From the sequence record NZ_CP081674.1: 64,000 nt of DNA; one strand, 5' to 3'. The translations under genes were made by a program, and so were the position numbers. Source of the DNA: a plasmid. Below are positions 2,106-55,354 of this stretch, in pieces; the first letter of the stretch is position 1; each line of letters starts with the position of its first letter. The notes below the pieces were generated by a model, which saw only the letters and a program-made list of their open reading frames with translations, was not told the origin of the DNA and ran no database searches.

Positions 2106-2720
2106 ATGTTGAGTCAACTCACCCGCAAGGGGCATCCCGCCGCGACGGTCGCACCATCACCGCAGGTCACAGCCCGGACCGCGGCCATGGTCCTCATCGC
2201 TGCTGACACACTTGCCCGCGTCCGGCAGCGCTACCAACAATTCGTGGGCGATCCACGCTCAGCGCTGGACCGCCCAACACTGGCCGACAGTGCCGACCGC
2301 TTCGCACGAGCACTCGCCAAGGCATTCGACGACGCAGCCGAACAGCTCACGAAGTGCCCGCCCGCAGACCCGGCGGGGGCGGCATCCGCCCTCGCCGCGG
2401 CGCACGCCGCCGAATACGCATTTGACCTGGCAGACCAACACGCCCGACGCTCAGCTCGCCGCGGACTATATCCAGGCGGAACCCCGCCGCTCGATGCCCG
2501 AGCACTCGACCTCATCGAGGAGGCGCGGGCCAGCCTGGAACTCGCTGCCGAATCGACCGATGCTCACATTCGGCGCAATCACCGCCTCCGCGCACAGGCA
2601 CTCGTGGCATCCGCCGGAGTCGTGATCCCCGAATTGCTGGAACCGGCCTGGACCGCGATCAGCGACGACCCGGGCCACGTCGAAAGCCGTGCGCAGTTTT
2701 GCTCAACAAAGAGCATGTAG
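2106..2720 (+). CDS. hypothetical protein
   Basis: 204-aa ORF with protein-like composition. TCAACTAAA-type motifs flank it. Confidence 0.5.
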   Translation: MLSQLTRKGHPAATVAPSPQVTARTAAMVLIAADTLARVRQRYQQFVGDPRSALDRPTLADSADRFARALAKAFDDAAEQLTKCPPADPAGAASALAAAHAAEYAFDLADQHARRSARRGLYPGGTPPLDARALDLIEEARASLELAAESTDAHIRRNHRLRAQALVASAGVVIPELLEPAWTAISDDPGHVESRAQFCSTKSM

Positions 2721-2794
2721 AAAATCAACTAAAGGCGTGATATAACAACCATAGTTGACTACACAGGGTCGTCTTTACGCAGAAGGGGTCGACA

Positions 2795-3235
2795 ATGGCG
2801 GACACACCGAGCGGCACTCCTCAGACACGCGGCCTGTGCCGCTACGACAATCCCGACAAGTGGTTCCCACGGCACCCCGTGCCACGCGCCCGCGTCATCC
2901 GGATCTGCAACAACTGCCCGTTTCAGCCTCAATGCGCCCAGGCCGCCCTCGATCTCGCAGAAACCGACGGCGTCTGGGCAGGCGTCCAGCTCCCGGGTGA
3001 CCGCGCCGAAGACGGCGACATGGATGAGGCGCGCGAGAAGCTTCGCAAGGTCGCCGCGCGACAGCTCCATCCTCAGGAGTTCAACCGCCGCAACGACATC
3101 GCAGCCGCAATGCGCTTCGTCGCCACCGAACAACGCAAGTTCGACCAGGCATGGACCAACGCCCACGCCGAACACACGCGCCGTCGCGCCATTACTGCCG
3201 TCGCCGCCGCCCGCAAGGAGCAGATCGGTGCCTGA
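2795..3235 (+). CDS. WhiB-like (Wbl) Fe-S transcriptional regulator
   Basis: Four-Cys pattern (C15, C38, C41, C47) plus the GVWAG turn motif characteristic of WhiB proteins. RBS gaagggg upstream of the ATG. Confidence 0.8.
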   Translation: MADTPSGTPQTRGLCRYDNPDKWFPRHPVPRARVIRICNNCPFQPQCAQAALDLAETDGVWAGVQLPGDRAEDGDMDEAREKLRKVAARQLHPQEFNRRNDIAAAMRFVATEQRKFDQAWTNAHAEHTRRRAITAVAAARKEQIGA

Positions 3236-3593
3236 TCGAAAGTTTGAGCAGCACCTCAACACCATGCTGCGCGATGACATCCTGGCTCAACTTCGCACCG
3301 CGGCGCAGCCGCGCAGTACCAGCGAGCTGCGAGCCAACGCACCAGCTCAGCCGCTACAGCCTGGTGGAACCGAACACTATCCGCCATTGCAAGAGCGCGT
3401 GTACCGAGCTCTGCTCAAACTCCACGCCGACGGAAAGATCATCAAGCATCCCGCCCGTGGCCGCATCGTCACCTGGTCGGCAGCGCGCAGCTGCGACGAC
3501 GACGAAATCGACCGCCTCGAGGACGCCTTCAACGCTCCCTGCAGCGCCTACGCGCTTCAACTCCTGCTGGGGCGAAAGGGATCACCGTCATGA
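3228..3593 (+). CDS. hypothetical protein
   Basis: GTG start overlapping the whiB-like stop. 121-aa ORF (VPDRKFEQHLNTMLRDD...). Confidence 0.4.
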   Translation: MPDRKFEQHLNTMLRDDILAQLRTAAQPRSTSELRANAPAQPLQPGGTEHYPPLQERVYRALLKLHADGKIIKHPARGRIVTWSAARSCDDDEIDRLEDAFNAPCSAYALQLLLGRKGSPS

Positions 3594-4066
3594 CGTCACG
3601 CATGGCTCCCAACGTCGGCGACGAATTGAACGATGAGTACGCAGCCCCCCACGACTCCGCCGCTGGCCCATTGAGCTGGTCCGAAATTGCCTCTACAGGG
3701 ACCATGACCGCCACCGCGCGTTCCTGCGCGGCTATCGAAGCAAGCGCAGCCGACAGCGCATCCACCTCAGCAGCAAGGGCGCACCGCTCCGCAATGTCAG
3801 CGTTGGATGCCGAGGGCAGGGCGAGCCAATCAGCTGCCAGCGGGGTGAACAGCCAGGTGAACCAGGTGAACTCGTGGTCCATCTGGTTCTTCGTACTCGG
3901 CATCCTCCTCGGTGTCATCCTCTGCCTTGCAGGGATCTTGACCACCATCCGCCTCCTTGAGGACAGCCGGCCGCCAGTCAGTGGTCAGCAACCGATAGTG
4001 GTCACCGAATACCCGCTGCCTCAGCCATTTTCGCCTTCTGACCTACCTGGTCTGATCCGAGGCTGA
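3590..4066 (+). CDS. hypothetical membrane protein (single TM helix)
   Basis: ATGA-type overlap with the upstream gene. Hydrophobic segment WSIWFFVLGILLGVILCLAGILTTI. Confidence 0.5.
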   Translation: MTSRMAPNVGDELNDEYAAPHDSAAGPLSWSEIASTGTMTATARSCAAIEASAADSASTSAARAHRSAMSALDAEGRASQSAASGVNSQVNQVNSWSIWFFVLGILLGVILCLAGILTTIRLLEDSRPPVSGQQPIVVTEYPLPQPFSPSDLPGLIRG

Positions 4067-4067
4067 C

Positions 4068-4559
4068 ATGAGCGCCACCATCAGTACACCGAACCCAGGG
4101 TCCTGGCTGGGGGTGCTACTGCGCAGGCAACCACACCAAATCATCTACAACCATGGTGCGCCGTACCTGCAGCGGTGGTATCTCATTCCGCGAAACCCGC
4201 TGTGCAACATCTATCTGCACCGCTTCGTGGCATCCGACGACCCGACGTGCCACGACCATCCATGGTGGTTCGCATCGCTGATCCTCACTGGCGGCTACAC
4301 CGAGGTCCAACCCAGTCGGATCACCTCCCGCCGCCCCGGCAGCCTAGCGCTGCACCAGGCCCAGCACCGCCACAGCGTGCGGCTGCCTCGCACTCCTGAG
4401 GGAAACGAAATCCCTTGCCTAACTCTCGTCGTCACCGGCCCTCGCGTGCGTGACTGGGGCTTCTGGTGCCCGCTGCGCAACGGCAGCTACCGATTCGTGC
4501 CCTGGAGGCAATTCGGCCCCGGCGGTTGTGGAGAAAGCGAGAGTGAGGCACAGCCATGA
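4068..4559 (+). CDS. hypothetical protein with a conserved His-rich motif (LHRF...DDPTCHDHPWW)
   Basis: 163-aa ORF. The motifs suggest a metal-binding enzyme of unknown family. Confidence 0.45.
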   Translation: MSATISTPNPGSWLGVLLRRQPHQIIYNHGAPYLQRWYLIPRNPLCNIYLHRFVASDDPTCHDHPWWFASLILTGGYTEVQPSRITSRRPGSLALHQAQHRHSVRLPRTPEGNEIPCLTLVVTGPRVRDWGFWCPLRNGSYRFVPWRQFGPGGCGESESEAQP

Positions 4560-5530
4560 TCCGGCCCTCAGCGAGCATCCAACGCCTCCATGCCATTCCA
4601 GCACCCGCCGCTCGAACCGGGCCACACCGTCACACGGTCCACAGCAGTGACGGTGTGAGGCTGTGCGTCTGCGATCACATCCCCGACGGGAATATCGAAC
4701 ACACCGTCGTGCTCCTCCACGGACTGTGCCTGCGAAGGCAGTCCTGGTACCGCCCAGCCCGAGCCCGACGCCGCCCAGGCATCCGCATCATCCAGCCCGA
4801 CCACCGAGGACACGGCCGGTCCGAGCAGGCGCCGCTACACACCTATACACCAGACCGGCTCGCCCAAGATCTCGCTGAGGTCCTCACCGCTTTGCACGTC
4901 ACCGGCCCGCTCACCCTCGCCGGGCACTCCATGGGCGGAATGACCGCGTTGAGCTACCTTGCCCGCCCGGTCAGCCAACAACCCGTACGCCCGCAGGGAC
5001 TCGTCCTTATCGCGACCTCGGCCGGCAGGCTCACCGATCACGGCCTCGGCCGCATGCTCGCTCTGCCCGGCCTCGACACCGCCATCAACCTGGCCCAGCA
5101 CTTTCCCCAGGCACTCACTGAGCGAGTCATGCGCGCCCTGGCGCAACCACTGTGCGATCTGGTCACCCACGACAAGACGGTTTCCGCGTCACTGGCCGAT
5201 GCGTTCAGATCCACTCCGACATCAACCACACTGGGGTTCTTGCAATCCCTTAAGACCTACGACCGCCACCACGTGCTGCCCAACATCTGCGCAGCCACCA
5301 CCGTGATCAGCGGGGGGACAGACCTTCTCACTCCACCCGTCCACTCCGACGCCATGGCCGCGGCTATTCCCGATGTCACGCGCATACACCTGCCCCACGC
5401 CGGCCACATGCTGCTGGGTGAGGCCGCCACCACCGTCAGCGACGCAATCCTGCGCACCGCCACCAACCCAGACGTCCAGCTGTACTCGTCCGACCAGGAT
5501 CAACGAACGGCCATCTCGGCGCCTGCATGA
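4556..5530 (+). CDS. alpha/beta hydrolase fold protein
   Basis: HG oxyanion motif (VVLLHGL) and GHSMGG nucleophile elbow. ATGA overlap with the upstream gene. Confidence 0.75.
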   Translation: MIRPSASIQRLHAIPAPAARTGPHRHTVHSSDGVRLCVCDHIPDGNIEHTVVLLHGLCLRRQSWYRPARARRRPGIRIIQPDHRGHGRSEQAPLHTYTPDRLAQDLAEVLTALHVTGPLTLAGHSMGGMTALSYLARPVSQQPVRPQGLVLIATSAGRLTDHGLGRMLALPGLDTAINLAQHFPQALTERVMRALAQPLCDLVTHDKTVSASLADAFRSTPTSTTLGFLQSLKTYDRHHVLPNICAATTVISGGTDLLTPPVHSDAMAAAIPDVTRIHLPHAGHMLLGEAATTVSDAILRTATNPDVQLYSSDQDQRTAISAPA

Positions 5531-5558
5531 CCGGCCCCTCGGTGAAAGGAATCCCATC

Positions 5559-5702
5559 ATGGCCACGACACTCTGCACCGATCAACGTCCGGTCGCGGCT
5601 CGACCGCCCGCACCTGCGCCCGACCTCGCCGACAATCTCACTCTCATGCTGACCGCGCGGCGCCGCCGCCACCTGCGCCGCTCCGCCTGGACGACACGAT
5701 GA
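5559..5702 (+). CDS. small Arg-rich protein (47 aa) translationally coupled to the downstream MTase
   Basis: RBS ggtgaaagga 6 nt upstream of the ATG. The stop overlaps the MTase start (ATGA). Confidence 0.3.
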   Translation: MATTLCTDQRPVAARPPAPAPDLADNLTLMLTARRRRHLRRSAWTTR

Positions 5703-6823
5703 CCCGGGCACACAAGTATCGCGTGTCCACACTCGATCGCGCCCAGCACAGCGCGCCCCGTCCCACCCTGTCACCGTACTTCCGCGACGACCAGGTGACG
5801 CTGTACCACGGCAAGGCGCTCGACGTCGCACGCGAACTGCCCAGTGGCTCAGTGGATTGCATCGTCACCAGCCCGCCATATTTCAACCTCCGCGACTACG
5901 GTGCCGAAGGACAGTACGGGCTGGAGTCAACACCAGCGGAATACGTTGCCAACCTTCGAGACCTCTTCAGCGAGCTGCGCCGCGTCCTCACCGACGACGG
6001 CACCCTATGGCTCAACCTCGGCGACACCTACAGCACCCGTGCTGACGCTTCAGCTGGGCCAACCTCAGGACGCAGCCGACCCGACGTCATGCCCGGGCGA
6101 ATCAACACCACCGGCACCATCGGCCGGAAGCAGCTCCTCGGAATCCCCTGGAGGGTGGCCTTCGCGCTCCAGGATGACGGCTGGATCCTGCGCCGAGACA
6201 TCGTCTGGGAAAAGCCCTGTGCCAAACCCGAAAGTGTCACCGATCGACCGTCATCACGACACGAATATGTCTTCCTGCTCACGAAATCACCGAACTACTG
6301 GTTCGACCTCGACGCCATCCGCGAATCTCACGCTGAGACCAGCATTAAAAGGGTAGCCGCCCACCGCTCACCAACAGGACGCGCTGCCCGTGAAGGCAAA
6401 CCCTATGTCGGAGAAGGGAAGCGGGAAACGATGCGCCTCGACCAAATGAACCACCCCCGAGGTCGCAACCCCGGCGACGTCTGGTCGATCAGCACCATCC
6501 CATTCCCACACGCTCATTTCGCCGTCATGCCACCCACACTGGCCCAAAAGTGCGTCATCGCCGGATACAAACCCGGAGGGATCGTCCTCGATCCGTGCAA
6601 CGGTGCAGGAACAACCGGCCTGGCAGCCCAACGCACCGGGCGCCGATACATCGGCATTGATATCAACGCCGACTACCTCGACCTCTCACTACGCACACGT
6701 CTGCGCGACGCCACATTGGACTTCTGCGTCGTCGACTCCGCCGCCGACATGCCCGAACCCAACGGCGATGGCCACGACACAGCCCCCACTCTCTACAGCA
6801 TCGCAAGCGAAGACGCATCGTGA
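5699..6823 (+). CDS. beta-class DNA methyltransferase (N4-cytosine or N6-adenine)
   Basis: Motif IV DCIVTSPPY (SPPY) near the N-terminus and motif I LDPCNGAGTTGLAA near the C-terminus. No adjacent restriction endonuclease. Confidence 0.85.
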   Translation: MTRAHKYRVSTLDRAQHSAPRPTLSPYFRDDQVTLYHGKALDVARELPSGSVDCIVTSPPYFNLRDYGAEGQYGLESTPAEYVANLRDLFSELRRVLTDDGTLWLNLGDTYSTRADASAGPTSGRSRPDVMPGRINTTGTIGRKQLLGIPWRVAFALQDDGWILRRDIVWEKPCAKPESVTDRPSSRHEYVFLLTKSPNYWFDLDAIRESHAETSIKRVAAHRSPTGRAAREGKPYVGEGKRETMRLDQMNHPRGRNPGDVWSISTIPFPHAHFAVMPPTLAQKCVIAGYKPGGIVLDPCNGAGTTGLAAQRTGRRYIGIDINADYLDLSLRTRLRDATLDFCVVDSAADMPEPNGDGHDTAPTLYSIASEDAS

Positions 6824-7745: not shown

Positions 7746-8555
7746 ATGAGCGCCGTCAACCCTCGCGCGGCGGCGGCCCGAGCTCGCCGTAAAGCCCTTG
7801 CCGAGCAGGGATGGCGGAACTTCTGCGCCGCGCTGGGCTACCCAGATCCCGACACCATCACCCAGGAGAGGACAATATGGCAGGAAAGCGACGCACAGGT
7901 CCGGGCCAAGATCAGCCCGATCTGTTCAGCATCCTCGACGGGGAAGGTGGCAGTGACCAGCCCGGAGATACGCCAGATCGTGGACAACATCTACAGCCAG
8001 CACCTCCAACTACCCCAGAACTGGACCGCCGGCCAGCGCGAGAAGTTCCTGGAGAACGAGGCTTCGCGGATCAGCCTGCAGATCGCGGACCTAGCAGCCC
8101 AAATGGGGGAGCAGGCCGTTCAACACTGGCAGAACCAGAACGGTCACCCGCCGGACTATCTGACCAAAGTCGGGCTGCTGAACAACGCCCGGTCGCAGGC
8201 GATGGAAACAGTGCTCAACAACGAACTCTACGAACAGATTCCCCAGACCGAGGACCCCAACGATCTCGAAGCACCGACGACCGAGACACTGGCTCGCAGC
8301 CAGGTGCCCTGGGATCAGCGCTGGACGAGCCCCCGGTATCGCAGCGAGCCCAGCGAGCAGATCGAGGACCTGGCCGCGGCGATTTGGCCGGCCCCGGATT
8401 TCTCGGCGGTGTTTCGGATCAAGGCGCAGTATCTGCTGGCGGCCCGCGCCGAGGACCAGCTTCCGCTGCCCACCCATCAGCACGACCCGCTGGCCGCGAC
8501 ACTGGCCGACCTGGTCTACAACGATCTGCGCCACGACGGCCTGCCAGAGCGCTAG
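7746..8555 (+). CDS. hypothetical protein (269 aa), possibly the N-terminal part of the downstream MTase-helicase
   Basis: Strong RBS aaggagg 5 nt before the ATG at 7746. Codon third-position GC is high and the amino-acid composition is diverse in this frame across 7746-8552. Confidence 0.55.
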   Translation: MSAVNPRAAAARARRKALAEQGWRNFCAALGYPDPDTITQERTIWQESDAQVRAKISPICSASSTGKVAVTSPEIRQIVDNIYSQHLQLPQNWTAGQREKFLENEASRISLQIADLAAQMGEQAVQHWQNQNGHPPDYLTKVGLLNNARSQAMETVLNNELYEQIPQTEDPNDLEAPTTETLARSQVPWDQRWTSPRYRSEPSEQIEDLAAAIWPAPDFSAVFRIKAQYLLAARAEDQLPLPTHQHDPLAATLADLVYNDLRHDGLPER

Positions 8556-46764: not shown

Positions 46765-47103
46765 CTACGGACGTCCTGTACCTGTGGCAGGCATGCTCGG
46801 CGCCAACAGTTCGCCGGGAGCGACTCCGAGCACCTGGGCGATATGAACCACTACGACGGCAGTGGGGTTCTTGCGTCCACCTTCAATGTGGTTCAGATGT
46901 GGCCTGCCAATACCAGCGCGCTCCGCGAGCTCGGCTTGTGTCAGACCCGCCTGCAGACGGTGGTCCCGGATGGCAGCACCGAGGGCGGCCAGGATGACGG
47001 AATCATCGCTGGACGTGTCCGTCACGGCCGCTCCTCTCCATAGGCGTTGCCCAAAGGCTACACCGGGAGTGATCGTGTCGGGGCGTTCAGAACAGGACAG
47101 CAT
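46765..47103 (-). CDS. XRE-family HTH regulator
   Basis: AGLTQAELAERAGIGRPHLNHIEGGRKNPT HTH. Lies immediately downstream of the PAPS-reductase-like gene. Start uncertain. Confidence 0.5.
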   Translation of the reverse strand: MLSCSERPDTITPGVAFGQRLWRGAAVTDTSSDDSVILAALGAAIRDHRLQAGLTQAELAERAGIGRPHLNHIEGGRKNPTAVVVVHIAQVLGVAPGELLAPSMPATGTGRP

Positions 47104-48286
47104 CAGTCGTGGCCTCCTGCCACCATTGTTCGAATCCGGCGCGCTGCTTGTCCTCGACAACAGCCGGGCACACCACGTAAAAGTGCTCCAGGTCCGGTTT
47201 TTCGGCGGTGCGCTGACGAACGATGTGACGCAGGATGCCATCTCCCCCTACACGAGGAACACCTGGCGCCAACGCCAGGGCGTCACTCATCTCTTGGCGC
47301 GTCCCCCGCTTCGTGGCCCGCACCGATCGTGCGACGGTTCCGCACCCGTCTGGCCGTTTCGACGATCGACGGGTCAGCCGCCGGACCTCGTAGATCGCGT
47401 GCTCGCAACCGTCGAGCGTCGCCTGGAACCGGCGCTCTACGTCCTCGAGGTTGGCTTGTGCGGCGAGCGCCGCGGCGGAGCTCCCCTGGATGAGGGTCTG
47501 GCGTTCGTTGAGCCTGCGGGCCACGTCCTCGAGGAACAGGGCGCGCGCGCCCTGGTGCGGTTCCCGCCGCCATCTCTCTACGACGTCCCGCCGGCCGGCC
47601 TCAGTGGTCATCGCAAACGGACAGAAGCCGCACGCTGATTTCGACCATCGGCGACCGGTGATCTGCGTGATGAAATCCGTGCACTGCGCCCGATCCCAAC
47701 CCCAGTCCTGCAACGGGTACCAGCCGGTGCGCTGGTCGGTATTGAACAGAGCATCCTTGACAGCCCTTGACGGCTCCCCGCTTTCGAAACCGACGACATG
47801 ACGATAACTCCGTCCGGCGGTGACCGTGGCGATGACAGGATCCAGGCAATTTCCTTTGGCGTGGATCGAGCACAGGCGCGTGCCACCGATCTGGGGAAGC
47901 GTTCCCGCCGAGAGCAGCTCATCCTCCAGTGTGTACGCGGCACCGTACAGACGCTTGGGAGCGGTGGAGTCCTGCAGCACCGCAACCCCTTCCCCGCTCG
48001 TGCTGGTCTTTCGTTGAGACCGGCCTACCTGGATGAAACGAACGCCGCGACGAGATAGCTCAGGAAGAACGACTTCCTCGACGTCGCGGATCGTCTCATC
48101 GAACTCTCCCCCAGTGTCTGCCGCGATGACGACGAGGTCTCGCAGATCGAAGTCACGGGTTGATGGTTCGGTGAACCACCGCAGCAGGATGGCGGTCGAG
48201 TCAACGCCCATCCCGTAACTCATCACAACCATTGGGCTGCAGTCGGACTCGCTCACGATGGGTAGTTGATCCTGGCTGGCAGTCAT
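47087..48286 (-). CDS. PAPS reductase-like / PP-loop ATP pyrophosphatase family protein (DndC/BrxP/IbrA-like)
   Basis: N-terminal PP-loop VVMSYGMGVDSTAIL. C-terminal Cys cluster SACGFCPF. Confidence 0.65.
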   Translation of the reverse strand: MTASQDQLPIVSESDCSPMVVMSYGMGVDSTAILLRWFTEPSTRDFDLRDLVVIAADTGGEFDETIRDVEEVVLPELSRRGVRFIQVGRSQRKTSTSGEGVAVLQDSTAPKRLYGAAYTLEDELLSAGTLPQIGGTRLCSIHAKGNCLDPVIATVTAGRSYRHVVGFESGEPSRAVKDALFNTDQRTGWYPLQDWGWDRAQCTDFITQITGRRWSKSACGFCPFAMTTEAGRRDVVERWRREPHQGARALFLEDVARRLNERQTLIQGSSAAALAAQANLEDVERRFQATLDGCEHAIYEVRRLTRRSSKRPDGCGTVARSVRATKRGTRQEMSDALALAPGVPRVGGDGILRHIVRQRTAEKPDLEHFYVVCPAVVEDKQRAGFEQWWQEATTDAVLF

Positions 48287-48314
48287 CAGACTCCTCCTGA
48301 CACTTCCTCGAAAG

Positions 48315-48358
48315 GTGTTGCCTATAGGCTACATCAGGGTGTAGCCTATAGGCAACAC
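48315..48358. promoter_or_regulatory. perfect 19-bp inverted repeat with a 6-bp spacer (GTGTTGCCTATAGGCTACA-TCAGGG-TGTAGCCTATAGGCAACAC) in the divergent promoter region
   Basis: Lies between the PAPS-reductase-like gene (minus) and the C5-MTase gene (plus). Each arm contains the self-complementary CCTATAGG. Confidence 0.7.
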
Positions 48359-48381
48359 GTTCGGTTGAGGAGGTAGACCAG

Positions 48382-50115
48382 ATGCTCGAAATAATGGATT
48401 GGTTCTGCGGGGCCGGAGGCTCGTCACAGGGTATGCACGCCGTACCGCACGTCCGGGTCACCAAGGCGGCCAATCACTGGGACAAGGCGATCGAGTCGCA
48501 CGCTGCCAACTTCCCCGACACCGACCACTACCTCGGCGACATCCGCGAGGCCCCCGTGGCGAAATGGCCCGTCGCAGACATCTTCTGGGCATCACCCGAA
48601 TGCCCACAATGGTCAACGGCACGAGGTAAAAAGCGCGACTTCGACGCGACGCTGCAGGGCGACCTGTTCGACACCCCACGCGACGAAGAGGCCGATCGCT
48701 CCCGCGCCCTCATGGAAGAAGTCCCGATGTACCTGCGCGGCGTCATCGAACGCGGTGGCCGAGTCCGGGCCGGGGTGGTCGAGAACGTCGTCGAGGTACG
48801 CGCATGGGACCAATGGGACCGCTGGATCGGCGAGATCCGCAGCCTCGGCTACCGAACCCGCGTCATCGCTATGAATTCCATGCACGCTCAACCAGGCCGC
48901 ACGCTGCCAGCCCCACAGTCACGCGACCGCCTCTACGTGGCCTACTGGGACAAAGCCCTGCGCCGCGAACCCGACTGGGACAAATGGCTCCGACCCCGCG
49001 CGTACTGCACGACATGCGACGAATGGATCGACGCGATCCAGGTGTTCAAGAAGCCCGGCGCCGACATGGGCCGCTACCGCAGCCAGTACGTCTACAGGTG
49101 CCCCCACGTGGCATGCCGCAACGCCATCGTCGAACCACCAGCCATGCCCGCCGCCGATGCAATCGACTGGACACTGCCCGGTGAGCGCCTCGGCGACAAG
49201 CCGCTACGGGAATTCAGGAACAAGGACACGGGCAAGGTGGTCGTCGCCCCGCTCGCCCCTAAGACGATGGCTCGGATCACGGCCGGAATCGAACGCTACT
49301 GGGCCCCGTTTATCACCGAGCACCGGCACGAGTATCGAGTCCGTGGTGTCGATGTACCGCTGCAAACCGTGGCGGCCGCGGGCAACCACTTCGGCTTGGC
49401 CGTGCCGATCGAAGGCCGCGACGGCAAGGTCGCCGCCCCGGTCGAGCTGCCTCTGAGGACCGCCACCACCCGCAACGAAACCGCCCTCGTGGTGCCGTGC
49501 GGCGGAACCTGGCGCGATGCAGCCACTACCGCCAACGTGCCGATATCGACCCGCACCACACGCGAATCCGACGGCATCGCCTTCCCCCCGTTCGTCGCCG
49601 AATTGCGCGGCGGCGCAAGCGACGTCCGCTCTGTCAACGACCCTCTCGCGACCGTCACAGCCTCGGGCAACCACCACGGACTCATCACCAGCTACTACGG
49701 CAACGGAAGCACCCACAGCACGGACGAAGCCCTCGCTACGGTCACCGCGATCCACCGGCACGCATTGCTGATGCGCAACAACGGAGTTCGCGGAGGACAC
49801 CCGGCCCGCCACACCACGCCCATCGATGAGCCAGCACGCACCGTCACTACCTCCGGGCACCAGTCACTACTAACCGCCCACGCACTGCCCATCGACCTCA
49901 GCGACGTGCTCTTCCGCATGCTGGAACCGCACGAGATCGGCCGCGCAATGGCCTTCGGACGCAACTACGTCGTCCTCGGAAACAAGCGCCAGCGAGTCCG
50001 CCAGTACGGCAACGCCGTCACTCCCCCGGTCGCCGGAGTCATCGTGTCAGCACTCGTCGAGGCAATCACCGGCGAAACGATCGAGCGATGGCCACACGAC
50101 CTGGCTGCGGCCTAG
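48382..50115 (+). CDS. DNA (cytosine-5)-methyltransferase
   Basis: Motif I DWFCGAGG, motif IV SPECPQWS (PC), motif VI ENV, and the C-terminal QYGNAVTPPVA. RBS gaggagg. A large variable region. Confidence 0.85.
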   Translation: MLEIMDWFCGAGGSSQGMHAVPHVRVTKAANHWDKAIESHAANFPDTDHYLGDIREAPVAKWPVADIFWASPECPQWSTARGKKRDFDATLQGDLFDTPRDEEADRSRALMEEVPMYLRGVIERGGRVRAGVVENVVEVRAWDQWDRWIGEIRSLGYRTRVIAMNSMHAQPGRTLPAPQSRDRLYVAYWDKALRREPDWDKWLRPRAYCTTCDEWIDAIQVFKKPGADMGRYRSQYVYRCPHVACRNAIVEPPAMPAADAIDWTLPGERLGDKPLREFRNKDTGKVVVAPLAPKTMARITAGIERYWAPFITEHRHEYRVRGVDVPLQTVAAAGNHFGLAVPIEGRDGKVAAPVELPLRTATTRNETALVVPCGGTWRDAATTANVPISTRTTRESDGIAFPPFVAELRGGASDVRSVNDPLATVTASGNHHGLITSYYGNGSTHSTDEALATVTAIHRHALLMRNNGVRGGHPARHTTPIDEPARTVTTSGHQSLLTAHALPIDLSDVLFRMLEPHEIGRAMAFGRNYVVLGNKRQRVRQYGNAVTPPVAGVIVSALVEAITGETIERWPHDLAAA

Positions 50116-50191
50116 TTCGACCCGGGGTGCAGAACGCCACGAAATAACCGTTGCGTTCTGCACCCACCAACTCAGGAGCAAGAAGGTTGCG

Positions 50192-50671
50192 ATGTCCGAA
50201 CAACTCATGATCGACTTCGATCCGCGAGCCACCGCCGCGCGCATCGCCGCCGAAGAAGAAGTGGCCGCAGCATACGCAGAACTGGTCGTCGAACTCGTCG
50301 TCACCGAAGCCGATGCCCGCGAGCACGACCTCTGGCTCACCCCTAGCGACGGCGGGCGCCTCACCGTCTTGGTGTGCCCTGCCTGCGGTCAGTACGAAGC
50401 CAACGAATTCCTAATCTGCAACAACCACGGTCTCAGCCGGGAGTATCTGTACAAGCGGGGCGACGGAGCATGGGTGACGACGGGCCGCGAGTACGGCAGA
50501 CAATGGTGTGTCGCCCTCGACCTCACCAGCCGACACCTGGCCGGCGACTGCCACCTCAGCGAAAGCCAGACGCAAATGCTGGGCCGACTCCGACCCGAGG
50601 TCCGCGAAAGATTCGATCGTGAGGTCGCGGATGTGCGCCAGCGCATCGAGGCTCGACAGATTGGTCGGTAG
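50192..50671 (+). CDS. hypothetical Cys-containing protein downstream of the C5-MTase
   Basis: CPACGQYEANEFLICNNHG. Not Vsr-like. Confidence 0.45.
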   Translation: MSEQLMIDFDPRATAARIAAEEEVAAAYAELVVELVVTEADAREHDLWLTPSDGGRLTVLVCPACGQYEANEFLICNNHGLSREYLYKRGDGAWVTTGREYGRQWCVALDLTSRHLAGDCHLSESQTQMLGRLRPEVRERFDREVADVRQRIEARQIGR

Positions 50672-50679
50672 CGCTGACG

Positions 50680-51113
50680 ATGAGCCTGATCGCTGCTATA
50701 CGGAACAGTCTTGCACTTGCTATGCCAAGCAAAGTTTTGCAATACGGAATTCGACATACTCACTGATTGCTGTGTGAACCCGTTCAGTGTTGTGAAACCG
50801 CCAAATGAACGCATGATGTATCCAATGAGGAAGTATGGTCAGGCGGGCAACGAGCAAAGATGGTGACGGCCGGGACTGTAGTGAATCACGCCTACGTAGG
50901 GCGAAATATACGCAATAGCATTGACCAGAAGAACGTCCACGACTTTGTGTGAAAGACCCGGCGCGGCGTCTCTGCCAGAATCCTAGTGACTAATAGAAGA
51001 ATGGCGAAAAGTCCACTAATAATATTAGCTACAACCATTGCAGTAATGGCGATAATCCCTTATTGTGGAAGCATAAGAAAATAGCCTATCTGATTCAGAA
51101 TGAGGAGTTGGAA
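50680..51113. promoter_or_regulatory. ~430-bp strongly AT-rich non-coding region (candidate oriT/origin/promoter region)
   Basis: The GC content falls far below all flanks, with runs such as ctaataatattagctacaaccattgcagtaatgg. Confidence 0.4.
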
Positions 51114-51380
51114 ATGTCCGTCACCGTGTACACCAAGCCCGCATGCGTGCAGTGCAACGCCACCTATAAGGCGCTGGAAAAGCAGGGCATCGCGTTCGAG
51201 AAGGTTGACATCACTGTCGACAGCGAGGCCCGCGACTACGTCATGGCGCTCGGCTACCTGCAGGCCCCGGTAGTGGTGGCCGGCAACGAGCACTGGTCGG
51301 GCTTCCGGCCCGATCGGATCAAGACACTCACGAATCCGGAGACGGTATCCACCGCCGATGCAAGTGCGGTGTCCGCATGA
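51114..51380 (+). CDS. nrdH: NrdH-redoxin (glutaredoxin-like)
   Basis: CVQC active site and a WSGFRPD C-terminal motif. RBS ggag. Confidence 0.75.
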   Translation: MSVTVYTKPACVQCNATYKALEKQGIAFEKVDITVDSEARDYVMALGYLQAPVVVAGNEHWSGFRPDRIKTLTNPETVSTADASAVSA

Positions 51381-52839: not shown

Positions 52840-53385
52840 TCAGAACAGTCGTGGGTGAACGCCCAACAGTGCCTCGCGCACTGCTTCGGCATTCCAGCCG
52901 TCGCGCACCGCGTCACGAAGGGCAACGGACCGTTCCCGACGCGCCTCGCGACCTAGCCCGCGAATCGACGGCCTGCCGCCGCCGCGGCGGCCCCGTCCCA
53001 TCCGCAACATGTTCTCAGACTGCGTGCCCGCGACGACATGCTGGCGTACCGATTCCGGCGGACTGATTTTCACGCAGATCGGATTGTCGCAATCGTGCAA
53101 GGCGAACACATCCGCGCTCAGCGGCCGGCCCGTAGCCATCGCCAATGCGTACCGATTCGGACGCACACAGAATCCTGTGCCCGATCGCGTGATGAAGAAC
53201 CTGCCATAGCCGTCCGCGCCAATGGCGCCCACCCAGATGCTGCAGTCATCCGCCTCGGGACCGATAACGACATAACTGCAAAACCGCGCGCACTCCGCTG
53301 GGTGTACCCGAGGGTCCACCCAGAGTGCGTGAACGTGGTCCTCAAGCCCATTCACGAGCCGTACGCTACCGATCCGCCCGGACAC
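52840..53385 (-). CDS. HNH endonuclease family protein
   Basis: HDCDNPICV...H...N pattern of the HNH motif. Confidence 0.65.
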   Translation of the reverse strand: MSGRIGSVRLVNGLEDHVHALWVDPRVHPAECARFCSYVVIGPEADDCSIWVGAIGADGYGRFFITRSGTGFCVRPNRYALAMATGRPLSADVFALHDCDNPICVKISPPESVRQHVVAGTQSENMLRMGRGRRGGGRPSIRGLGREARRERSVALRDAVRDGWNAEAVREALLGVHPRLF

Positions 53386-53415: not shown

Positions 53416-53958
53416 TCATCGTTGGCTTCCCAACATTTCCCCCGCGCTCGTGGGCTCTTCCCGCTGCGCCTGGGCCTCAACCGAAACACCCTGCCCGGCG
53501 TCCGAAGATGCCTCGACGCCTCGGTCACCTAGTGCTTGCGGATCTTCCGGCGACACGGCCCGTGGTTCGCCGGAACCTAGTGCCTGCGAACGGCTCCCGG
53601 CGGCGTCTCGAAGGCTCGGAGTCTGGGCGGCCAGTTTGATGTAGCTGCGGACCAACTTTTCCGGGACATCCCCCAGCGCGGCGATGTCTTTGATGGTCTC
53701 CCCCCGTGCCTTCAGGCGGGCCAGCGCCTTGGCGCCTTCCACCCGTTGTTCGTGGCGCCGCTGCTCAGCTTCACCTCGTACCTGCGCAAGGTGCTCGGCC
53801 TCCCAACCGTCGACGGCCTGAAGCTTCTGTTCAGCCAGCAGGAACGCCACCATGTCCTCGCGGTTGTCCGATTCCCTTTTGAGCCGTTCCTGCTGAGCTC
53901 TGGTCTGCGCTTCGCGGACCTTGCGGCGTACATCGCTCCGAGACTCGATCTTGGCCAT
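53416..53958 (-). CDS. coiled-coil hypothetical protein divergent from the relaxase
   Basis: Charged heptad-like region (RRKVREAQTRAQQERLKRESDNRE...). Confidence 0.4.
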   Translation of the reverse strand: MAKIESRSDVRRKVREAQTRAQQERLKRESDNREDMVAFLLAEQKLQAVDGWEAEHLAQVRGEAEQRRHEQRVEGAKALARLKARGETIKDIAALGDVPEKLVRSYIKLAAQTPSLRDAAGSRSQALGSGEPRAVSPEDPQALGDRGVEASSDAGQGVSVEAQAQREEPTSAGEMLGSQR

Positions 53959-54264
53959 GGTGCGGACCGTACGGCGGCGCGGCGGGCCGAGTCCAACAGT
54001 AGCTCCACATTCGCCCTGATCGAATTTTCTTTCCCTCCACACCGATTGAGCTTTGCGCGATCTGAGTTTGATGCTCCGGTCCCACCTCAGCGTGGCTCTG
54101 TCATCGCGATCCACCAGTATTTCGAAGCCACCCGAGCACCCCCGCCGGCATCCAGCCGCCGTCTACCCAAAGCCACACACCTCTTGCACTCAGGATCACA
54201 GTTCGATAACGATCCCAGGGCTACTGTTGGATTTGACGTGCGTCAAGTTTCTAACGTGCGGCTC

Positions 54265-55293
54265 ATGACGGCCACGCTGCACAAACTCACCGCCGGTGAT
54301 GGCTACCTGTATCTGATCCGCCAGGTCGCTGCGCACGACACCACCGAGCGCGGACGCAACACCCTCTCCGATTACTACTCGGCCAAAGGTGAATCCCCCG
54401 GCCGCTGGGTTGGCAAGGGGTTGGCATCACTGTCGTATACCGGGGTACGTGGCGTATCCCAACAGGTCAAAGACGAGGTCTGGACGGTACCCGAAGGGTC
54501 CGAGGTCACCGAGGAACAGATGGCAGCACTGTTCGGGGAAGGGTTGCACCCCAACGCCGTTGACATCGCCAACCATCAGGTAGGTCGAGGCGCACCTGCC
54601 CACGTCGCGATCAAGGCGGCTCATCTGGGCCGGCCATTCACCGTGCGCAGCGGGGCGACCGAGTTTCAAAAGGCACTCGCGGTCGCCTACCGCGAGTACA
54701 ACGCCGAGCACGGCAAGCGATGGAACGCACCCATCCCTGACGAGGTCCGTGCCCGACTGCGCACCACCATCGCGCGTGAACAATTCAGCGAGGAATACGA
54801 CCGCGAGCCCGCCGATGACCGCGAGCTTTCCGGCTTCATCGCGCGCAACTCACGGCTACCTACCACCGCCGTCGCCGGCTACGACATCACGTTCTCACCG
54901 GTGAAATCGGTGTCGACGCTGTGGGCCATCGCCCCCCTGGATGTGTCGGCCGCGATCGAAGAGTGCCACGACGCCGCGGTGACAGATTCGTTGGCGTTCA
55001 TCCAACAAAACGCCGCGTTCACCCGCATCGGTGCCGGCGGTGTCGCCCAAGTGGATACGACAGGCCTCATCGGAACAGCCTTCACACACCGCGATTCGCG
55101 CGCGGGTGACCCGGATCTGCACACGCACGTGGCGATTTCGAACAAGGTCGCCTACATCGACGCACACGGCGTGCAGCGTTGGCTGGCGCTGGACGGACAA
55201 CCCCTGCACCGCATGATGGTGAGCGCTTCTGAGCTCTACAACACCCGACTCGAGGCGCATTTGGAGGAGCGCCTCGGGCTGCGATTTCGCTGA
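54265..55293 (+). CDS. traA: MobF/TrwC-type relaxase, N-terminal relaxase domain (first part of a frameshifted traA)
   Basis: YYSAKGESPGRWVG (catalytic Tyr region) and HRDSRAGDPDLHTHVAISN (3-His motif). Confidence 0.8.
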   Translation: MTATLHKLTAGDGYLYLIRQVAAHDTTERGRNTLSDYYSAKGESPGRWVGKGLASLSYTGVRGVSQQVKDEVWTVPEGSEVTEEQMAALFGEGLHPNAVDIANHQVGRGAPAHVAIKAAHLGRPFTVRSGATEFQKALAVAYREYNAEHGKRWNAPIPDEVRARLRTTIAREQFSEEYDREPADDRELSGFIARNSRLPTTAVAGYDITFSPVKSVSTLWAIAPLDVSAAIEECHDAAVTDSLAFIQQNAAFTRIGAGGVAQVDTTGLIGTAFTHRDSRAGDPDLHTHVAISNKVAYIDAHGVQRWLALDGQPLHRMMVSASELYNTRLEAHLEERLGLRFR

Positions 55294-55354
55294 GGTCACA
55301 CCCCCCGGCCGCAACAAGCGACCGATCCGCGAGATTGTCGGCGTCAGCACCGAA

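Follow-up and report, generated by a model that had tools for sequence, protein, structure and literature searches.

Enzymes that resemble the reductases of adenosine 5'-phosphosulfate (APS) and 3'-phosphoadenosine 5'-phosphosulfate (PAPS) recur in systems that handle nucleic acids. DndC, SspD and BrxP, which belong to the same PP-loop superfamily, are tied to DNA modification, DndC having a ParB-like partner, DndB, while in IbrA/IbrB a PAPS-reductase-like protein likewise stands with a ParB-like one. Other PP-loop enzymes have targets other than DNA, such as the tRNA thiolases, TilS and Cap9 in type IV CBASS (cyclic-oligonucleotide-based anti-phage signalling system). In mycobacteria, a PAPS-reductase-like protein with no assigned function, CasCysH, has been described on plasmids (PMC8175902), and PAPS-reductase-like prophage genes have been noted in M. 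abscessus, where phosphorothioation was speculated upon (PMC8092301). The present analysis concerns a locus on a conjugative plasmid, sequence record NZ_CP081674.1, of which a high-GC stretch of 64,000 nt was examined (hereafter the window; all coordinates are positions in it). The locus encodes a 399-aa PP-loop protein, 100% identical to a hypothetical protein of Mycolicibacterium farcinogenes (148-kb contig), divergently from a C5-cytosine methylase. The constant unit among relatives is a pair of 18-bp operators together with the enzyme gene and an XRE-family regulator gene, the enzyme and the methylase being co-regulated cargo with interchangeable partners and not an obligate two-component system. 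We lean slightly towards the reading that a MOBF conjugative plasmid of M. farcinogenes here carries, on its relaxase-proximal side, an XRE-controlled, two-way establishment/anti-restriction locus.

A divergent locus with exchangeable partners

The locus is made up of the following features:

46765..47103, minus strand: XRE-family helix-turn-helix (HTH) regulator, ending at 46765, downstream of the 399-aa gene (HTH_31 and HTH_3, E 1e-15 to 1e-13)
47045..47062, no strand: third, weaker copy of the predicted 18-bp operator, CGTTGCCCAAAGGCTACA, between the stop of the enzyme gene and the short-form start of the XRE gene
47087..48286, minus strand: putative PP-loop PAPS-reductase-like enzyme, 399 aa (open reading frame list, PHROG 424 match, model)
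48312..48361, no strand: inverted repeat of two predicted 18-bp operator units, TGTTGCCTATAGGCTACA n6 TGTAGCCTATAGGCAACA, nearly filling the 95-bp divergent intergenic region
48382..50115, plus strand: C5-cytosine DNA methyltransferase, 577 aa, putative orphan (PF00145, motifs)
50192..50671, plus strand: Cys-containing protein, 159 aa, with CPAC at residues 62-65 (no family match)

An earlier sequence-only reading had placed the open reading frames of 399, 577 and 159 aa exactly so, and the XRE gene that it reported does lie beside the enzyme gene, downstream and on the same strand, its end at 46765 falling outside the interval then delimited. Two starts are candidates for this regulator, an ATG at 47103 (112 aa, overlapping the upstream stop) and a GTG at about 47025 (86 aa).

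How fixed this arrangement is was surveyed in 80 loci from species-representative genomes, with genes called by a codon-usage model; in the 72 with a near-complete enzyme gene, neighbours were counted by profile searches within 8 kb of it. No neighbour is obligatory. A C5 methylase of the window's family is found in 11 of the 72 loci and adjoins the enzyme gene in one, the window itself. The corresponding figures, with adjacent cases in brackets, are 15-19 (six) for ParB-N proteins, 21 (12) for XRE regulators, 13 (eight) for SSB, 16 (none) for NrdH, 13 (none) for MobF, five (four) for ArdC, five (one) for DprA, three (all three) for DUF932 and five (two) for DpdA. The same mix emerged when the two nearest genes to either side of the enzyme gene were scanned with Pfam, and in Solirubrobacterales the order runs ParB, DprA, ArdC, enzyme, SSB, relaxase. 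In 12 of the 72 loci, and in all seven close contigs examined, the XRE gene comes after the enzyme gene.

The closest relatives of the enzyme (68-88% identity) display two arrangements of the divergent slot. In contigs P0002, P0003, P0013 and P0023, a 161-aa Cys protein and a methylase of 591-606 aa face the enzyme and XRE genes, as in the window. In three further contigs, and in plasmids pJCM13574, pJCM18538 and others, the sister plasmids L001, L002 and L098 among them, the methylase slot is filled by a 525-aa ParB-N protein that has no domain in common with the methylase, and the small proteins behind each are unrelated. Since the methylase-linked enzymes fall into two separate subclades among the ParB-linked ones in a neighbour-joining tree, the slot has been swapped at least twice.

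These arrangements bear on the possibility that methylase and PP-loop enzyme form a dedicated two-enzyme DNA modification system, leaving a compound or dual mark on the same sites for self/non-self or anti-restriction purposes, which is close to the non-canonical modification module or defence island of the sequence-only reading. The adjacent divergent pair is kept in the window and in the four contigs named above, and a looser version, in which a methylase-DUF6349 arm with DUF6349 in between faces enzyme and XRE, occurs in L008, L009, L015 and M. abscessus pGD21-1; a common operator (below), a phage homologue adjoining methyltransferases and at least 11 plasmids that bear both genes point the same way. 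The outcome that the sequence-only reading had named as refuting, a pair never found together, does not apply, the divergent neighbours recurring in no fewer than four other contigs. Their association is nevertheless not obligatory: 11 of the 72 loci have the methylase within 8 kb and, in this species-representative set, it is adjacent in the window only, an unrelated ParB-N protein occupies the slot in equally close plasmids, and the swap is polyphyletic. Among plasmid records, 123 carry the enzyme, 78 the methylase (E up to 1e-30) and at least 11 both, usually 5-30 kb apart, so that the methylase family resides on many plasmids without the enzyme. Nor is an effector nuclease present. A dedicated two-enzyme system is distinctly unlikely, and the module or island is not supported.

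What is retained is the operator pair. Of the 99 loci fetched, 19 have an inverted pair of the pattern TGTTGnnTATAGnnTACA at 26-37 nt upstream of the enzyme gene, whichever gene is the divergent neighbour, and the other 80 have no such pair; its occurrence follows that of the XRE gene. Copies occur in the window and in L001, L002, L004-L006, L008, L009, L012, L013, L015, L032 and L094-L099. The promoter region shared by the divergent pair thus bears operators common to both genes. L008, L009, L015 and L012, in which the methylase lies 1.4-2.9 kb from the enzyme gene, have lone units 40-50 nt ahead of the methylase start. Because single copies precede these distant methylases too, methylase and enzyme appear, from the sites, to belong to one regulon, which is a regulatory link and not biochemical proof of joint action. 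The third unit in the window (47045-47062) has three mismatches to the operator, a degree of similarity reached by none in 100 shuffles, and L032 has a comparable extra copy directly after the enzyme gene.

Each 18-bp unit is predicted to be an XRE operator. The repeat would also hold overlapping mirror-image promoters on both strands (-35 TTGCCT, 18 nt, -10 TAGCCT), with -10 variants TAGACT and TAAACT that retain the TANNNT form typical of mycobacteria. A different explanation is that the inverted repeat functions as a nucleic-acid hairpin, be it a single-strand promoter, a priming signal on transferred DNA or a 5'-untranslated-region structure. The two arms are indeed 100% complementary over 18-32 nt with substitutions mirrored exactly in both, the internal palindrome of each unit decays while arm complementarity holds, and the predicted single-strand fold is strong (-27.7 kcal/mol, z = -8.4). 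Yet the lone units upstream of methylases and before the XRE gene cannot form a long hairpin, the motif co-occurs with the XRE gene, and a stem of 18-22 bp is too short for both promoter hexamers. The isolated units therefore favour a protein-binding site, and a hairpin, ranked below the operator, is unlikely.

On the opposite arm, the 577-aa protein matches PF00145 (E 3.8e-18) and PHROG 116 (E 3e-53) and has motifs I (FCGAGG), IV (PECPQ), VI (ENV), VIII (QSRDR), IX and X (GNAV), in agreement with the C5-cytosine methylase of large variable region described from the sequence alone. That region, about 300 aa between motifs VIII and IX, contains a four-Cys motif (C209, C212, C240 and C245) and, at residues 326-490 (window 49357-49851), a sequence of about 30 aa, 'P-x-x-T-V-T-x6-L-V', repeated six times in tandem. 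Relatives on actinobacterial plasmids have 3-7 copies and an ordinary 330-aa Dcm has one, so the large variable region is a trait of the methylase family. By analogy with the multispecific methylases of Bacillus phages, the repeats may provide several target specificities. Judged by its motifs, the protein belongs to a known kind of plasmid methylase, putatively the orphan kind, and stands out by its repeat architecture; its immediate neighbours are the PP-loop enzyme and the 159-aa protein, which has no family and for which a nuclease role is possible. The 159-aa protein found no match in Pfam, PADLOC, NCBIfam or PHROG. Its homologues form nine clusters, all from Mycolicibacterium or Mycobacterium, and in every case seen the family is located behind this methylase, a 161-aa homologue following it in L094, L095, L096 and L099.

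Two further kinds of neighbour were noted. NrdH-like glutaredoxins recur in these islands (16 of the 72 loci) without a ribonucleotide reductase nearby. DpdA is a DNA transglycosylase of 7-deazaguanine DNA modification, and DpdA-like genes adjoin distant enzyme homologues or lie close to them (L076 9480-10679, L078 2313-3503, L079 5247-6350, L049 13156-14418 and L063 16309-17055), immediately downstream of the enzyme homologue in two Acidobacteria loci. The 7-deazaguanine lead went unsupported, with no queuosine-precursor genes, DpdB or DpdC among the neighbours of the DpdA-associated homologues.

The PP-loop enzyme and its family

The catalytic domain of the 399-aa protein spans approximately residues 18-240 and includes the PP-loop SYGMGVDS (residues 23-30), reported already by the sequence-only reading and conserved among homologues, along with C139, K144, R174, C219 and C222. 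It is followed, at residues ~245-399, by a domain modelled as helical plus beta-sheet with conserved R303, R320 and K380, which fold searches did not place. In 122 diverse members, C139, K144, G166, R174, S217, C219, C222 and R303 are fully invariant, and cysteines past residue 222 are not conserved (C294, C315 and C373 vary). The supposed C-terminal Cys cluster has accordingly to be replaced by a three-cysteine site (C139, C219 and C222) that, by sequence, lies inside the catalytic domain, the catalytic cysteine of CysH being missing. Inteins highlight the same position. In homologues P0155, P0163 and P0216, LAGLIDADG inteins of ~330 aa are inserted between C219-x-x and C222 of the KSACxxCP motif, with C222 as the +1 extein residue, and their location exactly before C222 therefore marks this site as important and conserved.

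Apart from inteins, the only fusion partner found across the family is one weak SprT-like domain, an N-terminally fused metalloprotease domain in the 870-aa homologue P0169 (E 2.7e-4) that recalls the protease domain of ArdC. In L003 (pTHAF192_b, 2705-6665), and also in P0102, the enzyme gene is cut short by an inserted set of tyrosine-recombinase (XerC/XerD-like) genes, and in one database entry the enzyme N-terminus is joined to a recombinase as a chimeric protein. In L084 (Pseudoalteromonas phage KB12-38, 3231-8708), two PAPS-reductase-like genes are found among methyltransferase, DNA-ligase-like and C5 methylase genes, and this cluster sits downstream of an antirestriction gene.

Conventional searches say little about the protein. 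Neither Pfam nor the PADLOC models gave a match, and the sole NCBIfam match (E 0.012) is irrelevant; in particular, PF01507, the CysH-type family, is not matched even at E up to 10, nor are the PADLOC models for DndC, SspD and BrxP at E up to 0.01. Sequence searches of the PDB were empty save for a marginal match to PptA (E 1.2), a lead that was dropped, the literature giving nothing further. By contrast, PHROG 424, annotated 'PAPS reductase', matches residues 17-240 (E 3.7e-11), an AlphaFold model built from 28 homologues is confident (predicted local distance difference test score 89.8), and hhalign aligns the protein with a Pseudoalteromonas phage 'PAPS reductase' at a probability of 98.7%, with motifs in common. 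On the strength of these three results, the protein is best described, at the level of sequence and model, as a member of a divergent, PAPS-reductase-like branch of the PP-loop ATP pyrophosphatases. The model has the Rossmann-like PP-loop fold that defines the CysH family; Foldseek comparisons with the PDB gave weak, generic PP-loop matches, and a viral Foldseek match has E 7.6e-7. The fold resembles that of APS/PAPS reductases and is nearest to the clade of PAPS reductases to which DndC and SspD also belong. Of the assignment made from the sequence alone, the fold thus stands, whereas the proposed links with DndC, SspD and BrxP did not hold up in profile searches.

The possibility that this is an ordinary CysH-type PAPS/APS reductase, an accessory of sulfur assimilation, draws on the APS/PAPS-reductase-like fold and on the 'PAPS reductase' label that some databases give to homologues. 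It is effectively refuted by the lack of any PF01507 match (the phage PAPS-reductase-like proteins do match this family, weakly), the missing conserved C-terminal catalytic cysteine, the extra C-terminal domain and a plasmid and phage context devoid of cys genes. The enzyme represents instead a large unnamed family that varies a known superfamily by having two domains. When 1.84 billion cluster representatives were searched with a profile, 3,003 relatives were recovered at an E value of up to 1e-3, of which 496 reach 1e-30; the family, of about 3,000 clusters at 50% identity, has no Pfam model.

A possible role in plasmid establishment

The conjugative nature of the element, stated in the sequence-only reading, is borne out by genes to the right of the locus:

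51063..51380, plus strand: NrdH-like glutaredoxin with CVQC (Glutaredoxin match, E 8e-16)
53752..60169, plus strand: MobF/TrwC relaxase-helicase in two open reading frames (TrwC profile; AAA_30 too)
60246..61673, plus strand: type IV coupling protein, TraG/TrwB-like (T4SS-DNA_transf and TraG-D_C matches)

The true start of the NrdH-like gene is probably an internal ATG near 51114. The relaxase open reading frames (53752-55293 and 55358-60169) are in different frames and the break is within the relaxase domain, positions 1-208 of the TrwC profile being in the first and 227-285 in the second; the gene is unbroken (1950 aa) in L095, and the split (55293-55358) stems from a frameshift, from decay into a pseudogene or from an error in sequencing. 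The genes of the methylase, the Cys protein and NrdH are oriented toward mobF and the enzyme-XRE arm away from it. Between the end of the methylase operon and mobF, downstream, lie 1-3 kb, an order repeated in L001, L002, L095 and pMchErm55.

In the establishment/anti-restriction reading, the 50-bp inverted repeat would drive the methylase, Cys-protein and NrdH genes rightward and the genes of the 399-aa enzyme and XRE regulator leftward. Upon entry into a repressor-free recipient, both arms would fire until enough XRE has built up to silence them. The side transferred first would be the one upstream of mobF, the methylase arm could be read from the incoming strand, and the methylase would shield plasmid DNA from host restriction. 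The enzyme would bind ATP at its PP-loop and adenylate a substrate, to which C139, C219 and C222 might deliver sulfur, either through a three-Cys [4Fe-4S] site, as in TtuA, NcsA and APS reductase, or through a persulfide/disulfide pair that the NrdH-type redoxin could recycle. Its target would most likely be nucleic acid, a suggestion prompted by the DNA-handling neighbours and by an extra domain with invariant Arg and Lys.

This reading is consistent with a neighbourhood rich in SSB, ArdC, DprA, ParB, DUF932, methylase and MobF genes. Genes of these kinds are reported by Samuel et al. (PMC11541004), or are otherwise recognized, as establishment and anti-defence genes of plasmids. It is also in line with the finding that plasmid leading regions are enriched for orphan methylases and SSBs, the transferred strand serving as template (Samuel et al., PMC11541004). 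Of the function proposed by the sequence-only reading, the anti-restriction side finds support in the same establishment context (SSB, ArdC, DprA, ParB, DUF932 and methylases), while a self/non-self effector is not present.

Several points nevertheless weigh against it. The leading-region placement would follow from mobF proximity and gene orientation. The methylase, Cys-protein and NrdH genes would conform to the template-strand orientation described in PMC11541004 but the enzyme and XRE genes would not, and their arm, pointing away from mobF, should not be transcribable from the incoming single strand. A strict sigma-70 scan, whose consensus is of the E. coli type, found no promoter, and the mirrored substitutions in the repeat arms are also compatible with a hairpin function. 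Finally, the literature searched holds no functional study of the enzyme family and no evidence on activity, cofactor or substrate.

The chemistry of the enzyme invites other proposals. The first is stand-alone DNA phosphorothioation of the DndC/SspD type, with a host cysteine desulfurase and without Dnd or Ssp partners. The PP-loop with conserved cysteines, a fold nearest to the clade of DndC and SspD, ParB-like partners in sister plasmids that recall the DndB/DndC pairing and the report that phosphorothioation is common in M. abscessus (PMC8092301) would all fit. It seems difficult to reconcile, however, with the absence of a match to the PADLOC DndC, SspD and BrxP models or to any relevant NCBIfam model, or with the nicking and ATPase partners that known systems require. 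As the sequence-only reading had observed of the window, standard Dnd, Ssp and BREX partners (DndA/D/E, SspA/B/C and BrxC/PglZ/BrxL) and likewise a desulfurase are absent among the listed top 25 Pfam families (38 and 50 matched) of the four flanking genes, two to either side of the enzyme gene, in 66 loci, the window beyond these not having been scanned with defence models. Phosphorothioation is, on balance, very doubtful.

A second proposal is a target other than plasmid DNA, be it an RNA of the host (tRNA or another), a protein or a small molecule that acts as an immune signal. With its invariant Arg and Lys, the C-terminal beta-sheet domain could bind RNA, and no DNA-specific partner is constant, but the context consists mostly of DNA-handling genes (SSB, DprA, ArdC, ParB, methylases and DpdA), which makes such a target improbable. 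A third, broader proposal is that the 399-aa family is a new class of stand-alone ATP-dependent nucleic-acid modifier, a thiolase or adenylyl-transferase of conjugative plasmids, integrative and conjugative elements and phages of Actinomycetota and other phyla, induced on entry under XRE control and swapping DNA-targeting partners (C5 methylase, ParB-N and DpdA). This is possible, if rather unlikely; were it true, the family would write an undescribed DNA mark. The establishment/anti-restriction reading thus remains the one we prefer.

Two other features of the window deserve mention. At 7811-14029 it encodes a 2072-aa protein in which a methyltransferase domain is joined to ResIII/SNF2-type helicase domains; giant methyltransferase-helicase fusions occur on conjugative plasmids. 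Upstream of mobF, on the minus strand (52840-53385), an open reading frame of 171-181 aa has an HNH-like 'HDCDNPICV' motif and no Pfam match, and its synteny is kept in six loci (cluster c20).

The anti-restriction and establishment functions of actinobacterial plasmids, including those of clinical mycobacteria, Nocardia and Prescottella equi, are poorly known, and the locus draws attention to a very large unnamed PP-loop/three-Cys family found alongside ArdC, SSB, DprA, ParB and orphan methylases, one that databases mislabel as 'PAPS reductase' of sulfur assimilation. Should the enzyme modify nucleic acid, it would bring new chemistry to the arms race between plasmid and host, and viral 'cysH' auxiliary metabolic genes would be read differently. 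The compact two-way operator-promoter offers a tractable model for the induction of plasmid genes upon entry into mycobacteria. The locus is well worth experimental study but is no proven new system.

Comparison with known systems

CasCysH, the ancillary protein of type IV-B CRISPR-Cas, is likewise a PAPS-reductase-like PP-loop protein of mycobacterial plasmids that lacks the CysH catalytic cysteine. However, it is 280 aa long and does not have the Cys motifs of the window enzyme, and a relationship between the two was rejected when hhalign with JS623 WP_015298111, on pMYCSM02, gave a probability of 1.4% (E 0.037), the PP-loop alone being in common. None of csf1, cas11, csf2 and csf3 or the Cas families figures among the listed neighbour families of the enzyme's relatives, and a suspicion of type IV-B CRISPR in the window was dismissed, the open reading frames concerned, at 34.6-38.1 kb, encoding an amidase, an oxidoreductase and a hydrolase.

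IbrA/IbrB offers a parallel in gene arrangement, since sister plasmids pair the enzyme divergently with a ParB-N protein. In the window, however, the IbrB-like position is held by the C5 methylase, and the ParB-N partner of the sister plasmids has 525 aa. The DUF3440 domain of IbrA is not evident in the enzyme, in which no Pfam domain was detected, and it is on this basis, without direct comparison with an IbrA sequence, that the two are set apart. The IbrA link of the sequence-only reading is thus reduced to a ParB-like partner that occurs in sister plasmids only. DndC, SspD and BrxP differ from the enzyme in their extra domains as well as in the models that it fails to match. TtuA, NcsA and LarE, which are [4Fe-4S]-dependent PP-loop thiolases, show no match at the sequence level and have different substrate-binding domains, and the cluster of the window enzyme is hypothetical.

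The APS/PAPS reductases (CysH; PDB 4bwv, 7rge and 2goy) are alike in fold, with 14-16% identity. The window enzyme departs from them in having no PF01507 match and no C-terminal catalytic cysteine of the ECGLH type, in its intact ATP-type PP-loop and extra domain, and in being plasmid-borne, and the suggestion that it might simply be CysH finds no support, cys genes being absent too. The methylase, for its part, resembles the C5 methylases, orphan or multispecific, that phages and plasmid leading regions encode: all catalytic motifs are there, no recognized restriction enzyme is adjacent, and position and orientation would be typical of a leading region. It differs from them in its six repeats of about 30 aa and its four-Cys motif.

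The closest relationship of the enzyme is with PHROG 424, whose members (ASV43981 of Pseudoalteromonas phage KB12-38 and ORF020 of Planktothrix phage PaV-LD) are also borne by mobile elements. Both have the GMGxxS PP-loop, C-S-x3-K, GF-x3-E-x2-R, PL-x-WG-x-R-x2-C and KSAC-x-F-CP, and the phage copy adjoins methyltransferases. The phage proteins are ~280 aa long and do not have the C-terminal 150-aa domain of the window enzyme. By profile and motifs, the 399-aa enzyme is a member of PHROG 424, a family whose own 'PAPS reductase' function is putative.

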